A stretch of 64,000 nucleotides of DNA from a phage (PZ445489.1); one strand, 5' to 3'. Positions 6,180 to 40,756 are shown, counted from the stretch's first letter. Notes: generated by a model not told the origin, from the letters alone. Made by a program: numbers and translations.

Positions 6180-6946
6180 TGTCTCTTTCTGATTTAGCTA
6201 CACAAATTATTAAGGAGCAGCTAGATAATGTTGGGCGTTCCGAGAACAATAAGAATACTGTTGTATATTCTGTTGAAACAGGACTGAAAGATCCTACTAG
6301 AGATGGTACTGTTGCTCAGGTATCTTTTAAATTCTCAAAACCTATATCCCAAGATCTCCTTAATGTTAGGACCGCTTCTATTCTAAAAGCAGTTTCTTCT
6401 AGCTTAGATCTAACAGGAGATTTAGGTGCTCTAGAGAATTTAATACAAGCAACCGCTGGTAAAAAATCTGCTGTAGGTAAAAAACGTTCTACTGGTAGAG
6501 TTCAAGTAAACTTTGGGGATCCTAGAGACGTAGAAGATGGATATTCTGGTGCAGTAACAGGTGCTTCTGGTCGTTTTGTATCAAATAGTAATATGAAGGT
6601 TATTCTGGAGTTGGTTGCTAAAGAATACTTAATAAAGGATATGAAAAAAGCAGGAGCTCCACTTAAATTTAGAACAGGTCGTTTTGCAAACTCTCTAAAA
6701 GTTAAAGATGTTATGCTTAGAGATGCTGGAACTAGCAAAGGTGCTCCGGAATTAAACGTTACATATAATTATATGGTACGTCCATATTCAGTATTTAATC
6801 CTGCAGTATCTACATATCGAAGATTGTCACTACGACCCTACCCAGGTGCTAGAAACCCTCAAAGACTAATTGGAGAGGCGATAGCTAAAGCTGCAAGAGA
6901 CTTAATTCACTCCAGATACAAAATTAAGGTTAATCAAGGAACCTAA
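6179..6946 (+). CDS. Hypothetical structural protein (head-tail joining region)
   Basis: 255 aa ORF, translationally coupled to neighbours within the structural operon. Confidence 0.4.
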   Translation: MSLSDLATQIIKEQLDNVGRSENNKNTVVYSVETGLKDPTRDGTVAQVSFKFSKPISQDLLNVRTASILKAVSSSLDLTGDLGALENLIQATAGKKSAVGKKRSTGRVQVNFGDPRDVEDGYSGAVTGASGRFVSNSNMKVILELVAKEYLIKDMKKAGAPLKFRTGRFANSLKVKDVMLRDAGTSKGAPELNVTYNYMVRPYSVFNPAVSTYRRLSLRPYPGARNPQRLIGEAIAKAARDLIHSRYKIKVNQGT

Positions 6947-35124: not shown

Positions 35125-36644
35125 ATATCGCTGGCCTGTTCACCTGTTGAATTTTCAGTTTTATCTTTCTTAGCACGTTTAGGTTGAGCCGACTTATCCT
35201 TCTCAATAGGGATAACGAACTCAGCTTCCATTTGAGATATGTCTTCCATTGCTAGGTTAGTTGTATTATCCATTCGCAGAGTTTCCCAGTTCATCTTAGG
35301 CATAAACTTCACGCTATCAGAAGAACGAGTCTTAACGAAGTCAAACATAATAGCACCTTGACCATTATCAGCTTTTGCAGCATTAAGATTAGCAGCCATG
35401 TCTGCGGAGTCAAGAATCCCCTTTGACATACGTGTTCTACCATCTTGATCGATCTGGTAAGGAGCTACACCAGCCACGTTATGTTTCTGGCAGATAGATT
35501 TGAAAGATGAGCTAACAACCATCTGTTCTTTCCAGTCATACATATCAATGGTTTTAGAGTCTGGAAGTCGGGTTTGGTTAATATAGTCCAGTAAAGCTAC
35601 TGTAACTTTATCACCATATCTAGCAACTAATTTATTTAATTCTACGTCAACTGTTGTAATGGACAGTTCGGGGTCATAAACAATAATCATAGGAGTATGT
35701 AGTTCATATCCCTCTATTAGCTTACTCTCCATATCGTAGAAATCACTCATCTTAGCCATTGTGTACTGTTTAACGAAGCTATCGAAAAGCTCTTCACCAC
35801 CATTAAACATTCTAGCTCTAGTTCTGGCTAATCTCAACAGAGCTGCACCTTCTAGAGTATTATTACGCATTGCTAATGCTGATACACCAGCTAACATGGC
35901 TAGATTACGTCTAAATACTTCATGTTCTTTCATCTCAATTGAGAAGTATGGAGCAATATCCCCATTCAAATATTGCTGAACCTGTATGTTTGAACAGATA
36001 ATGGATTTACCAGTACCACGCCAACCACCAAGCAGTAACGTTTCTGTGCGAGCTAAACCAATTTGAGCGTCGAACTCATTACAAATACCAAGAGCGATTA
36101 AGTTCAGTTTGGTATCTTCTTCTCTCTGGAAAATACGCATGTTATCTGCGTTGAATACTTTTCCAGTATTCGTTACTTTCTCTTCTAATTTTAAGTGAAG
36201 GGAGGCAACTCGGTTGAGAATTTCTCCCTGATCCAGCATTGTTAAATCTTGAAGCACGTCTGTTTCTAGAAGCTTCAGGAATAAATCCTGTGTATATTCG
36301 GCCTCTAGGACTTCAAGTGCCTGTTCCATGCTCACTTCTGGAATTTGAGTGTTAGCTAAGACGACTAGAGCTTGAGAAAGGCGGGCGTTCCTATTAGCTT
36401 CAAGCATAAGTGCGTCAATGGACGGCATTGTGTTATATTTTTTATAATAATTCTGGACGGCTTGGTAAATTGAGGAGAAAGCGTCATTAAAATGATCTTT
36501 ATGCAGTTTTGAGAATGTTTCCAATGCTATTTGCTTCTGTTCGGAAGCTAGAAGCATCTTCAACACTACAGCTTGCACGTTAAACAAGGTCATTCTCCTT
36601 TGCACGCTTTCGTGCCTTCTAAATGCAAAAAGGGGAAGGAGCAT
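35121..36644 (-). CDS. Replicative DNA helicase (DnaB/RecA-fold ATPase)
   Basis: 507 aa; Walker A GGWRGTGKS; overlaps primase start; exact start uncertain (alternative Met 51 nt downstream). Confidence 0.75.
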   Translation of the reverse strand: MLLPLFAFRRHESVQRRMTLFNVQAVVLKMLLASEQKQIALETFSKLHKDHFNDAFSSIYQAVQNYYKKYNTMPSIDALMLEANRNARLSQALVVLANTQIPEVSMEQALEVLEAEYTQDLFLKLLETDVLQDLTMLDQGEILNRVASLHLKLEEKVTNTGKVFNADNMRIFQREEDTKLNLIALGICNEFDAQIGLARTETLLLGGWRGTGKSIICSNIQVQQYLNGDIAPYFSIEMKEHEVFRRNLAMLAGVSALAMRNNTLEGAALLRLARTRARMFNGGEELFDSFVKQYTMAKMSDFYDMESKLIEGYELHTPMIIVYDPELSITTVDVELNKLVARYGDKVTVALLDYINQTRLPDSKTIDMYDWKEQMVVSSSFKSICQKHNVAGVAPYQIDQDGRTRMSKGILDSADMAANLNAAKADNGQGAIMFDFVKTRSSDSVKFMPKMNWETLRMDNTTNLAMEDISQMEAEFVIPIEKDKSAQPKRAKKDKTENSTGEQASDI

Positions 36645-36658
36645 AGCCCCCTCCCCTT
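36626..36658 (-). terminator. Terminator-like hairpin after D5-like gene
   Basis: AAGGGGA-loop-TCCCCTT hairpin followed by TTTT on - strand; overlaps the possible helicase start region. Confidence 0.5.
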
Positions 36659-36675
36659 AGGTTTAATTTACCAGA

Positions 36676-37443
36676 TTATTCAGCAGCCGCAGCTTTTGCA
36701 TCCAGTTTAGCACGCTTAGCGGCACCATCATAGTCCTTAGCAACCAGACCACGACGAGACAGCATAGATTTAACACCACGCTCAGACTTACCAGTTTTCT
36801 CAGCGATCTCAGCAACAGTCATGTTAACCAGATCCAGACCTTCTAGCAGATCTTCACGAGTTTTAGCACTTGAAGTTTCCTGTACCGGCATAGCAGCGAT
36901 ACGACCTTCACGAAGCAGGCTCAGAGCTTTACCACGGATCTGCTTGATATTACGACCGAAGTGAGCAGCGATAGCTTCAATAGTAGCACCAGCAACAACC
37001 TGATTAACAAAATCAGTTTCTTCATCCGGAGTGAAGGAACGAACAGCAGCAGCTTTTTCAGTTGGCTTAACAGAAGCGGTCATTTCTAGACTCAGGATCT
37101 TACCCTGTACCTGTTTAGCACCGAACTGACCACCAGCTACAGCAGCAGCGATTTCAGCATAGGTATACTGACCAGCATGAGCGTTCAGGAAATCAACCAG
37201 TTCAGCTTCCTGCTCAGGAGTCCACGGAGATTTCTGCACTTCGTTAGCTTTTTGTACTTCAAAACCTTCTTTACGCAGTTTAGAGCCAACAGAGCGAGCA
37301 GTAACATCTTTGCCAGTTTCAGCAGCCAGTTCAGCAGCGATAGCCGCTACTTGTTCTTGAGAGATTACAGCAACACCCAGAGCAGTGGCTTTTGCTTTCA
37401 GAGACTCGGTTACACCTTCTACGTTCCAGTTCAGTTTAGACAT
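36676..37443 (-). CDS. DNA-binding protein with four internal helix-turn-helix-like repeats (D5-like)
   Basis: 255 aa; four repeats of ~30 aa (e.g. TVAEIAEKTGKSERGVKSMLSRRGL); host-optimal codon usage. Confidence 0.65.
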   Translation of the reverse strand: MSKLNWNVEGVTESLKAKATALGVAVISQEQVAAIAAELAAETGKDVTARSVGSKLRKEGFEVQKANEVQKSPWTPEQEAELVDFLNAHAGQYTYAEIAAAVAGGQFGAKQVQGKILSLEMTASVKPTEKAAAVRSFTPDEETDFVNQVVAGATIEAIAAHFGRNIKQIRGKALSLLREGRIAAMPVQETSSAKTREDLLEGLDLVNMTVAEIAEKTGKSERGVKSMLSRRGLVAKDYDGAAKRAKLDAKAAAAE

Positions 37444-38209
37444 TATTATTTTTCTCCAATAGTTCTTTAATCGACAGGATTTCTATCCCATTCGTTTCGG
37501 CTTTCTTATAAGATGAGGAAGAACGCTTCGATTCATCCTCACAGATTAGGTATTTGACGTCTTTGGTAACGGATTTCTTAACCGTATATCCTAGACCTTC
37601 TAAATAGTTTGTTGCATCCGTTCTATTTGCAAAATCTTGCAAAGATCCGGTAATACATACCGCGATTCCATTTGGCTGGGCAACTAATTCATCTGCAATG
37701 ACGGTTTTAGCTTTAGCACCAGTTGAGAATTTCCACGGTAGTTCGATAACATCCTTGCCTTGTGGGGAACTTAGCCAGGCTTTGTAGTTTTCTCCAGCCT
37801 TGCCGTCAGCCTTCACATCGTGGAAGCTAGTGCAATTTTGGGATAATTTCTTTGCTGCAACCTCTCCGATTAGGGGGATTCCTAAAGAACCGAGAACTGA
37901 ACCAAAGTCAATGTCTCCGCGAACTTTAGTGTTTAATTCGCTAATTAATTTAGCGGCAACCTTGCTACCCACTGCTCTAACCAAATCTTCTTCGGTTAGG
38001 TAAAATAGTTCTGAAATCTTCGTCAGCTCCAGCTTCTCAATAGTTTTTGGGCCAAAGCCCTTTAACTTCATTTTTGTACAAAAGTTCTCAATTAGCTTAC
38101 TTGATTGCGCTGGACAGTTGGACTTATTCCTACAGAATAATTGCCCGTTGACAAGATCTAGCTTAGAACCACAAGAGGGACATTGTGTTGGAATTTCGAT
38201 TTTCATCAA
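37436..38209 (-). CDS. NAD-dependent DNA ligase, C-terminal part (zinc finger, HhH, BRCT-like)
   Basis: 257 aa; CPSCGSKLDL...CRNKSNC zinc-finger; glycine-rich HhH segments. Confidence 0.8.
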   Translation of the reverse strand: MMKIEIPTQCPSCGSKLDLVNGQLFCRNKSNCPAQSSKLIENFCTKMKLKGFGPKTIEKLELTKISELFYLTEEDLVRAVGSKVAAKLISELNTKVRGDIDFGSVLGSLGIPLIGEVAAKKLSQNCTSFHDVKADGKAGENYKAWLSSPQGKDVIELPWKFSTGAKAKTVIADELVAQPNGIAVCITGSLQDFANRTDATNYLEGLGYTVKKSVTKDVKYLICEDESKRSSSSYKKAETNGIEILSIKELLEKNNNV

Positions 38210-38236
38210 ATTTCTTCCTTATCAATTTATATAAAT

Positions 38237-38265
38237 ATTATAGCAAGTATTTAAGCATTTAGCAA
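38237..38265 (-). promoter_or_regulatory. Early promoter located between the two ligase ORFs
   Basis: TTGCTA-17 nt-TATAAT with conserved downstream ATTTATATAAATTGAT box. Confidence 0.6.
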
Positions 38266-38408
38266 CTACAATTTTAACTAACTTTGCTTACCCTCGCCAT
38301 AACTTTCTATCCCTCAACTGAATGATAATAGTATATACCTAAGCGGCGAAAATGTCAATAACCACTTTATAATTCCGATATGGTAGATGGGTAGCAAAGG
38401 GTTATGTA

Positions 38409-39383
38409 TTAATCGTATACTCGCTCTACTATGCACGGGATTACACCACCAGCACGAATTACTCGAATCTGGCAACCGATCTCTAGATCGAGAGAGTTAA
38501 TATAATCAACGTTATTAAGAGTCGCTTTAACAATTGTAGCGTCATCAATAATTACCGGTTCGAAATAACCAACAGGAGTTACTTTACCAGAAGCCCCTAC
38601 CTGCCATTCAACTTTAGTAAGAGTTGTAATCTCGCCTTCTTCATCCTCTTTAATAGCGAATGCCCCACGAGGGAATTTATTAGTCCAGCCTTCTCGGAAG
38701 AATTTGTTGTTGTCATTAATACGAACAACTTTACCGTCCGTCGGAATCCATTTAAAGAAGGAACGCACATTAACAACTGTTAAGAAATCTTCATTCTCTA
38801 GCCAGAGCATATCTTTTAAATATGCTTCTGTAATACCTACAGACTCAGCAGAACATTGGATACCATAAGCAACGAAGATTAAACCACCTTCCCCGATACG
38901 TTGTACGAAATCATCACTATCTTTGAGGTTAATAGCACCAGAGGCAAAGTTACGTTTATTTTCTACTTCTTTTGTAATTAGAACTTCACCAGTGATTTGA
39001 GTAGGTACTTTTTGGGAAATCTTTTTAGGGATGTTCAGCAATCTTACGTTGCTTGTGACATCATTCCCTAGAATACCATTACCACGAGTTAGTGCTTGAA
39101 CAAATTCTCCATTAATATATAACAGAGAAATTGCACAACCATCTAACTTATCAGTTTCTACTTGACCTAATGGGTTAAATGGGGGTTTATCTCCACGATT
39201 ATAATAAACTTTCTGTAAAGAATACATACGATACAGATGTGGAATATCACCCTTAGGCCCGATCTCTTCTTCTAGTGGGAAGCGTTTTACCAGGCAATCA
39301 TACTCCTCATCAGAGATTAAAGACATACCTTGATAATATGCTTCTTGACAGCGTTTAATAAATTCTTTTACATTATTCATCAT
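38409..39383 (-). CDS. NAD-dependent DNA ligase, N-terminal adenylation/OB-fold part
   Basis: 324 aa; adenylation motif KLDG, NAD-ligase-like N-terminus (EEYDCLVKRF). Confidence 0.8.
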   Translation of the reverse strand: MMNNVKEFIKRCQEAYYQGMSLISDEEYDCLVKRFPLEEEIGPKGDIPHLYRMYSLQKVYYNRGDKPPFNPLGQVETDKLDGCAISLLYINGEFVQALTRGNGILGNDVTSNVRLLNIPKKISQKVPTQITGEVLITKEVENKRNFASGAINLKDSDDFVQRIGEGGLIFVAYGIQCSAESVGITEAYLKDMLWLENEDFLTVVNVRSFFKWIPTDGKVVRINDNNKFFREGWTNKFPRGAFAIKEDEEGEITTLTKVEWQVGASGKVTPVGYFEPVIIDDATIVKATLNNVDYINSLDLEIGCQIRVIRAGGVIPCIVERVYD

Positions 39384-39567
39384 CGGCGATTTCCATCTTG
39401 AGTTCTTTATTATATTGTGTAACCATATCCATCAAATCAGCAGATTCTTTCAGAAACGCATCTTTGTACACCTTTTGATTTACTGTGCCTATGCTATCTT
39501 GATAATTAATGCGTGCTGTGGAAAGTAGATTAAGTTTTGCTTGAATCTTGGGAAGTGTTACTTTCAT
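39373..39567 (-). CDS. Hypothetical small protein
   Basis: Start moved to ATG with GAGAGGA RBS; track start 39582 lies inside the conserved promoter downstream box. Confidence 0.4.
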   Translation of the reverse strand: MKVTLPKIQAKLNLLSTARINYQDSIGTVNQKVYKDAFLKESADLMDMVTQYNKELKMEIADDE

Positions 39568-39596
39568 AATTGATCCTCTCATTAATTTATATAAAT

Positions 39597-39625
39597 ATTA
39601 TATAACAAAACTGAGTTGAAAGCAA
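39597..39625 (-). promoter_or_regulatory. Early sigma70-type promoter
   Basis: TTGCTT-17 nt-TATAAT with conserved downstream box. Confidence 0.6.
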
Positions 39626-39652
39626 ATACATTTATAAAGAAAAAGCCAAGAA

Positions 39653-39961
39653 CTAGGCATTCTTGGCTTTGAGTTCTTCAGCTCGTTTCTGTACTTCATG
39701 TAAAACCTCAGATTCGCTAAGAATCTGTGTAAACGCATAGAAAAGCTGTGATGTTGTTTCCAGGGTGTAAGGAAAAGAGAAGCCAGATTTCGTTGGAAAC
39801 CATTCATCATTAATATCAAGAAGCCAGTAACGAATACCCATGTATAGATTCCCACGAAATTCAGATACTGTTAATCTTACTTGTTCCCCCTCCTTCTCCC
39901 AAAGTATGATGGACTGGTCATCAACGTGTCCTTCATAGTTTTGATTTACCTGTTCGCTCAT
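39653..39961 (-). CDS. PC4/YdbC-like ssDNA-binding protein
   Basis: 102 aa; RLTVSEFRGNLYMGIRYW segment resembling the PC4-family fold. Confidence 0.55.
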   Translation of the reverse strand: MSEQVNQNYEGHVDDQSIILWEKEGEQVRLTVSEFRGNLYMGIRYWLLDINDEWFPTKSGFSFPYTLETTSQLFYAFTQILSESEVLHEVQKRAEELKAKNA

Positions 39962-39977
39962 TTACATATCCCAAATA

Positions 39978-40001
39978 CACAAAAAGCCCCATATAGGGGC
40001 T
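39978..40001 (-). terminator. Rho-independent terminator
   Basis: AGCCCC-ATAT-AGGGGCT hairpin followed by TTTTT on - strand. Confidence 0.7.
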
Positions 40002-40011
40002 AATTGGTTTC

Positions 40012-40308
40012 TTATCGGCCTACTGGAGAAGCACGATCTAACTCTGATTGGAGGCTAGTCACACGACGGACTTTCTCGACAGGAATAAAACGGAAACTAT
40101 CATTAGTACGAGAGAAGACAAGAATTTCATCATCTTTCGCTTTACGAATACGTTCACGTTTAATACGCTCAGCCAGATATTTATCTTGGGCTGGATCAAA
40201 TTCCATCGTACCCTGAAGGTACGTGGTTCCTTTCTGACGAAGTTTCTCGTAATGAAGATAAAACTCACCAAATTTTTCGCACTGTGCAATAATTTCAGCT
40301 TTAGTCAT
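40012..40308 (-). CDS. Hypothetical protein
   Basis: 98 aa ORF with terminator downstream. Confidence 0.5.
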   Translation of the reverse strand: MTKAEIIAQCEKFGEFYLHYEKLRQKGTTYLQGTMEFDPAQDKYLAERIKRERIRKAKDDEILVFSRTNDSFRFIPVEKVRRVTSLQSELDRASPVGR

Positions 40309-40345
40309 AGCTATAGTTCCTTTTGTTGGTGGATTTATCTAAAAA

Positions 40346-40756
40346 TTACTTAGTGATAGCTCGGATTGCTTCTGCCAGATGAGCGGCCGCTTTACCAGTC
40401 AGTTTGTCGATAATTGCATCATCCAGAAAATCTGGTGCTAAGCCAGCATCAGAGAATGCTGCGCGAAGGTCGGCATGGGCTTGAGCTTTGGAGGTACGAG
40501 AACCACCGGAAGCTTTTTCTCCAGTAGATGCGCTAGATTTAGAAGTAGAACCAGCAGCTTTCTTAATATACAAACCTGCTTTAGTCAGCTTCATACGAAA
40601 ACCGTTCGGAGTTACACCATTTTCCTGGGCAATTTCGCTAACAATTTCCATGCTAACACCCGGACGTTCATCCTCTGGGAATTGCTCCATACGAGCAACG
40701 TATTCGGAAGACATTTTTTCGAACAGTTCATCAGTCCACTGAGTTGGAGTAGTCAT
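40346..40756 (-). CDS. Hypothetical protein with motif related to the D5-like repeats
   Basis: 136 aa; EIVSEIAQENGVTPNGFRMKLTKAGL resembles the repeat unit of 36676..37443; own promoter upstream. Confidence 0.5.
   Translation of the reverse strand: MTTPTQWTDELFEKMSSEYVARMEQFPEDERPGVSMEIVSEIAQENGVTPNGFRMKLTKAGLYIKKAAGSTSKSSASTGEKASGGSRTSKAQAHADLRAAFSDAGLAPDFLDDAIIDKLTGKAAAHLAEAIRAITK

Follow-up and report, generated by a model that had tools for sequence, protein, structure and literature searches.

ligA and ligB in a T5-like phage: the known two-gene NAD+-dependent ligase with T5 promoters between its halves

In a 64,000-nucleotide (nt) stretch of phage DNA (PZ445489.1; the window, in whose positions all features below are numbered) an NAD+-dependent DNA ligase is encoded by two separate open reading frames (ORFs), ligA and ligB, which lie on the minus strand together with all other features of the ligase locus. 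Judged by its sequence, the window belongs to a T5-like phage (Tequintavirus), and the feature is already known: it is the ligA/ligB pair of the T5-like phages, with known promoters between the two genes and a solved homologous structure. We hold it to be about 90% probable that the two genes encode one NAD+-dependent DNA ligase whose OB fold and zinc finger have been parted at their linker, giving two polypeptides that are separately promoted, separately translated and associate with each other, and that this split is ancestral in the T5-like phages. The locus is made up as follows:

38409..39383, minus strand: ligA, 324 amino acids (aa), the catalytic half, with domain Ia, a nucleotidyltransferase (NTase) domain with K79 in the motif KLDG, and an OB fold
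38210..38408, minus strand: non-coding spacer of 199 nt between ligA and ligB
38330..38358, minus strand: promoter P-K28b (TTGACA, 17 nt, TATACT; 11/12 positions), in T5 'promoter P-K 28b', NC_005859 66366-66440
38237..38265, minus strand: promoter P-K28a (TTGCTA, 17 nt, TG-n-TATAAT; 10/12 positions), in T5 'promoter P-K 28a', 66459-66533
37436..38209, minus strand: ligB, the DNA-binding half, with Cys4 zinc finger, HhH and BRCT; 257 aa if read from the TTG at 38209

The ORF list confirmed both ORFs, head to tail, at the coordinates at which a first-pass annotation of the window had placed a KLDG/OB half and a zinc-finger/HhH/BRCT half; the Pfam matches and the invariant cysteines agree with this division, and the spacer, announced there as 200 bp, measures 199 nt. 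The product of ligA (ORF A) matches Pfam DNA_ligase_aden (PF01653, E 3.6e-23) and, with residues 253-322, DNA_ligase_OB (PF03120, E 3.6e-22), which places the OB fold after the NTase domain. KLDG occupies residues 79-82, and K79, L80, D81 and G82 are each invariant in five relatives. Pfam Nlig-Ia gave no score on ORF A, and fused relatives scored weakly with it (E about 1e-3 to 1e-4); residues 15-29 contain the conserved motif A-Y-Y-x-G-x-x-x-I-S-D-E-E-Y-D, which matches ISDaEYD of Thermus in a weakly aligned stretch. The product of ligB (ORF B) matches Pfam BRCT and HhH and carries a zinc finger of the form CxxC...Cx5C at its N-terminus. Its more likely start is the ATG at 38206, one codon past the listed TTG and giving 256 aa, since an AAGGAAG Shine-Dalgarno sequence precedes this ATG and the solved homologue starts with MKIQIP. 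ORF A ends with TAA, followed by a second in-frame stop 13 codons on, and ORF B lies in a different frame. On the coding strand of the spacer the ORF list holds no ORF of at least 40 aa, and an Rfam scan of 36500-40500 returned no relevant match, leaving the spacer without an Rfam family.

To locate the break, an artificial fusion of ORF A and ORF B (the latter from its ATG) was searched against the PDB sequences. Escherichia coli LigA (2owo) aligns to this fusion as one stretch across the junction (query 215-574 versus residues 284-666), with ORF B corresponding to residues 402-666 and K79-LDG of ORF A to K115-LDG. At the junction, A, which ends in ...IVERVYD, and B, which starts with MKIEIPTQCPSCGS, stand opposite E. 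coli ...VV-nvvls-ERPEDT-r-EVVFPTHCPVCGS. As both ends align across this part of E. coli LigA, the break sits in the OB/zinc linker, and in the fusion alignment no LigA segment is lost or doubled at the junction. The comparison with bacterial LigA that the first-pass annotation had recommended for its domain boundaries thus comes out collinear.

That the two halves exist as separate chains is seen in two PDB entries, 9hu3 and 9i5i. Each of them holds a 339-aa chain named 'DNA ligase (NAD(+))', matched by ORF A residues 4-324 (E 3.9e-103), and a 248-aa 'DNA ligase subunit B', matched by ORF B residues 2-253 (E 4e-81). By tblastn, the chain A sequence is a 100% match to the T5-like Providencia phage vB_PreS_PR1 (PR1); chain B begins at Met1 with MKIQIP. 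In T5 and hundreds of relatives ligA and ligB are annotated as 'subunit A/B', in T5 ever since its genome was published in 2005. A two-subunit ligase, or a separate expression of its C-terminal half, had been proposed in the first-pass annotation, and these annotations, the two-chain entries and the annotated T5 promoters support it. In such an enzyme LigA (324 aa) would be the catalytic core, reacting with NAD+ via domain Ia and K79, and LigB (256 aa) would supply the zinc-finger, HhH and BRCT module that clamps the DNA. The two would associate non-covalently to seal nicks, as both chains in the PR1 entries and the general knowledge of LigA suggest.

The window ORFs fit the gene tables of T5 and DT57C (D3 ... 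ligA, spacer, ligB, D5, D6 helicase). Compared with T5, LigA is 99% and LigB 95% identical, and the spacer is 100% identical, i.e. better conserved than the coding sequence on its flanks. A 2.3-kb region of the locus matches 514 phage records, 429 of them collinear, the best being Salmonella phage phC17 (97% identical); by tblastn, LigA is matched by 1191 phage records and LigB by 959. The T5 genes are listed as AAU05253 and AAU05254 (PMC3632103), and a passage of PMC1684257 cites the T5 genome report of 2005 for the split ligase.

To follow the split beyond these close relatives, both halves were located in each of 85 loci (78 from IMG/VR with a LigA alignment and 7 from GenBank). Where LigA is at least 41% identical and the sequence extends far enough downstream, every sampled locus is split: the A ORF ends at most 16 codons from the end of the LigA match, after the OB fold, and LigB follows downstream. 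The window pair fits this T5-type split, as its A ORF stops directly past the OB fold and its B ORF has the conserved N-terminus. None of the four cysteines varies among 14 LigB sequences with identities as low as 30%, and M-K-I-x-I-P-x-x-C-P-x-C is retained at the N-terminus; the break point is therefore identical throughout. The distance between the halves is far more variable, ranging from 82 to 3838 nt in the sampled split relatives. Tequintavirus and Epseptimavirus have about 205 nt between the halves, Klebsiella phage Sugarland and L036 have 194-202 nt, and Proteus and Vibrio phages 347-1383 nt; among marine metagenomic relatives the gap is 82-119 nt long, and in two loci it measures 3.8 kb. 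Five compact single-chain phage ligases (L073-L077) come out as sister to the split clade in a tree built by neighbour joining, which carries no support values. We take the split to be ancestral in the entire T5-like lineage.

The promoters in the spacer deserve separate consideration. A consensus scan of the region found 8 promoter-like sites, with 8.9 expected from shuffled sequences. Because the raw count is no higher than in the shuffles, the case for the promoters rests on identity to the T5 annotation and on a position conserved in divergent relatives. The 'full early promoter' that the first-pass annotation had seen at 38237-38265 is present and corresponds to P-K28a; it is not the only one, however, as the better match, P-K28b at 38330-38358, had been missed. 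The -10 hexamer of P-K28a ends 30 nt 5' of the ligB ATG. Although the remaining spacer has diverged, the tandem layout is also found in Sugarland, L036, PR1 and a Proteus phage: a TTGAC(A/G), 17 nt, TATA(A/C)T promoter and, some 90 nt further on, an extended -10 promoter. Among 37 distinct regions upstream of split ligB genes, 34 have a best promoter-like site whose -10 hexamer ends 26-31 nt before the start codon, loci with 0.3-3.8 kb of other genes between the halves included. More than half of these regions (21/37) score 11-12 of 12, a score reached by at most 2 of 200 shuffles in each case. In the marine relatives the -35 hexamer overlaps the ligA stop codon.

A literature search for the promoter names K28a and K28b yielded no relevant paper; the original papers on the P-K28 promoters are said to date probably from the 1980s, with Gentz and Bujard, J Bacteriol 1985, reportedly one of them. 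We also considered an 8-codon mini-ORF after P-K28b (ATG GCG AGG GTA AGC AAA GTT AGT TAA) and rejected it, as Sugarland has TTG in place of the ATG and a stop after 4 codons. As a separate observation, the RNA that would run from P-K28b up to the ligB start (38200-38323, minus strand) folds as a long hairpin (-26.1 kcal/mol, z -3.78, none of 200 shuffles as stable) in which the P-K28a region is paired. Conservation of this hairpin is doubtful, since several of its pairs are, by eye, broken in Sugarland.

On either side of the ligase genes lie the following features:

39584..39631, minus strand: promoter before orf69-ligA (TTGCTT, 17 nt, TATAAT); T5 annotates a promoter at the equivalent place
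39373..39582, minus strand: small ORF orf69, 69 aa, phrog_8267, sharing 11 nt with the start of ligA; annotated in DT57C as hypothetical
36676..37443, minus strand: gene of the D5 DNA-binding protein, D5 in the annotations of T5 and DT57C
36630..36658, minus strand: strong terminator-like hairpin after D5, a 13-pair stem followed by a T run

Upstream, a terminator-like hairpin (39670-39642, minus strand) is followed by the orf69-ligA promoter, and orf69 would open the ligA transcription unit of this phage. This unit would be transcribed from an early sigma-70 promoter. The 19-mer TATAATATTTATATAAATT, comprising the -10 hexamer and the first transcribed bases, occurs exactly at 39584-39602 and at 38224-38242, i.e. 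in both the orf69-ligA promoter and P-K28a; allowing up to 3 mismatches, the window contains 11 copies (0.19 expected). It includes ATATT, which has been described as a discriminator signature of T5 early promoters (PMC7472727). Downstream, the D5 start overlaps the ligB stop (ATGTCTAA), and D5 is therefore probably co-transcribed with ligB, with translational coupling also probable; the hairpin at 36658-36630 is the probable end of this ligB-D5 unit. The D5 protein itself shows weak Pfam matches to sigma-70 region 4 and helix-turn-helix (HTH) families (best E 1.1e-6, residues 204-230), which fit the role in late transcription described for D5. A hairpin scan found no terminator-like site in the spacer between ligA and ligB. 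With no such site in the spacer and two T5 early promoters in tandem there, ligB and D5, which overlap, are probably transcribed both by read-through from upstream and from P-K28b and P-K28a, the promoters of their own. Counted in this way, ligB and D5 would be read from three promoters and ligA from one, and the additional promoters would uncouple, and probably raise, the expression of ligB and D5 relative to ligA.

Several points weigh against this picture of one enzyme in two separately promoted chains. The promoters P-K28b and P-K28a of the window are assigned by their identity to the T5 annotation, and an expression of ligB above that of ligA is something we infer from the promoter arrangement. 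Our literature search found no ligation assay or pull-down on the T5 pair, only mentions at the level of annotation and a 2006 paper on LigN, and it found no paper on 9HU3/9I5I either, '9HU3' returning unrelated accession strings only.

Among the alternatives the strongest, if still unlikely, is that LigA alone is a working minimal ligase and that LigB has drifted to another job, e.g. that of a DNA-binding factor with BRCT and HhH modules which works alongside D5 in replication or in late transcription, hence its own promoters. In this case one would understand why ligB is tied transcriptionally and translationally to D5 and not to ligA, and why the promoter adjoining ligB is the most conserved non-coding feature. 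In addition, LigN truncated at its C-terminus, after the OB fold, still adenylates itself (PMC1684257). However, LigB retains the four zinc cysteines, the HhH region and BRCT in relatives with as little as 30% identity, ligA and ligB co-occur in all split relatives, and both proteins were deposited together as subunits in two PDB entries. Deletion studies of E. coli LigA from the Shuman laboratory reportedly point the same way, as Ia-NTase-OB without zinc finger and HhH is said to fail to seal nicks.

We consider it very improbable that the two ORFs are joined after transcription or translation, be it by an intron, an intein, trans-splicing or ribosomal bypassing as in T4 gene 60. The clean junction, at which no part of LigA is missing or duplicated, would be expected of a spliced gene too. 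Nevertheless, no intron or other RNA family of Rfam was found in the region, and no additional intein-like sequence is present, A ending and B beginning at homologous linker residues. Moreover, the gap ranges from 82 to 3838 nt among the relatives, and as many as five unrelated genes can lie in it; ligB is equipped with a start codon, a Shine-Dalgarno sequence and a promoter of its own, and chain B of the solved homologue starts with its own Met1.

Finally, an error of sequencing or assembly, or a pseudogene recently created by a frameshift, in a gene that is really contiguous, the objection by which the first-pass annotation would have been overturned, has next to no probability, given that the halves lie 199 nt apart in different frames with several stops between them, that hundreds of independently sequenced phages share the arrangement, that metagenomic relatives with LigA identities down to 41% keep both ORFs intact (the break being found in every sampled relative at or above this level whose contig reaches far enough), and that the solved protein chains are separate.

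Returning to the divided ligase, the gap between its halves has collected accessory genes in several relatives. In Vibrio phages of the VF16 type it holds, among others, a DprA-like protein (phrog_768). The Proteus phage Stubb carries a NADAR-domain protein between ligA and ligB (L002 3495-4112, Pfam E 1.6e-31), which puts an NAD/ADP-ribose-related gene inside the locus of an NAD-dependent ligase. Two marine loci of the same layout, L066 (5933-9570) and L068, have five genes in the gap; their contents were scanned in L066, not L068, and are a T5orf172-domain (GIY-YIG-like) gene adjoining ligA, followed by a 2OG-Fe(II) oxygenase, a methyltransferase, a carbamoyltransferase and a DUF6071-like gene. 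In a third marine locus, L067, a T5orf172-domain gene (6584-6946) adjoins ligB on its upstream side. All three (L066-L068) keep a perfect 12/12 promoter match just before ligB.

The OB/zinc boundary is also the place of the cut in two distantly related phage NAD+ ligases (28-31% identical), L081 (4989-7745) and L083 (4995-6897). In L081 a gene for a TnsA-like endonuclease abuts both ligase halves. In L083, which comes from a 205-kb contig, the halves are separated by a 40-nt gap containing an 11/12 promoter-like site (TTGACA, 17 nt, TATATT). Given these two further cuts at a shared boundary, the existence of fused ligases as sister group of the T5-like clade and the retention of a promoter 26-31 nt upstream of ligB in almost all split lineages, whatever the rest of the gap contains, one might speculate that the OB/zinc break is recurrent and selected in phage NAD+ ligases, with mobile insertions having seeded the splits, which were then kept for an expression of LigB (and D5) independent of the catalytic half. 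We regard this as a tentative idea that is rather less likely to be right than wrong.

The split ligase is of some enzymological interest, as it indicates that a LigA can function with its catalytic core and its DNA clamp on two different chains; the structure of a homologue is available. For genome annotation it has little consequence, because the pair belongs to the standard knowledge on T5 and public records annotate it correctly. The comparative additions made here are modest: the fixed break point, the promoter staying beside ligB, the compact ligases as closest fused relatives and the gap that collects accessory genes.

Among known systems, 'genes in pieces' arise via insertion of homing endonucleases, as in nrdA of Aeromonas phage Aeh1, split by mobE, and in the T4 topoisomerase genes 39 and 60. 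The phage ligase resembles them in that two ORFs, separated at a domain boundary, encode an essential enzyme and their products would reassemble, and endonuclease-like genes are present in L081, L066 and L067. It differs in that the window spacer keeps promoters only: no endonuclease ORF lies in its 199 nt, such genes occurring only in the distant relatives. The closest unsplit relatives, the compact phage NAD+ ligases L073-L077 (IMG/VR contigs of 29-59 kb), share the full domain set in 570-577 aa at 34-36% identity, in contrast as a single ORF with no internal promoter or gap. T5 itself has the same order of ligA (T5.116, AAU05253), P-K 28b, P-K 28a, ligB (T5.117, AAU05254), D5 and D6; the 69-aa ORF overlapping the ligA start, however, is annotated in DT57C and SPC35-type phages and not in T5, and the window LigB is 2-3 codons shorter than that of T5 and DT57C. 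Providencia phage PR1 shares the two-chain architecture and a spacer of about 195 nt with tandem promoter-like sites, whereas its proteins are only about 53-55% identical in amino acid sequence and its spacer is unrelated except for the promoter hexamers. With E. coli LigA (PDB 2OWO), lastly, the phage pair has in common the domain order Ia-NTase-OB-Zn-HhH-BRCT, the KxDG lysine and the Cys4 finger. The E. coli enzyme is a single polypeptide of 671 aa, whereas the phage enzyme consists of two chains with 580 aa in total; the lysine of phage LigA lies 36 residues closer to the N-terminus, and the remaining NTase domain is shorter by about 33 residues.

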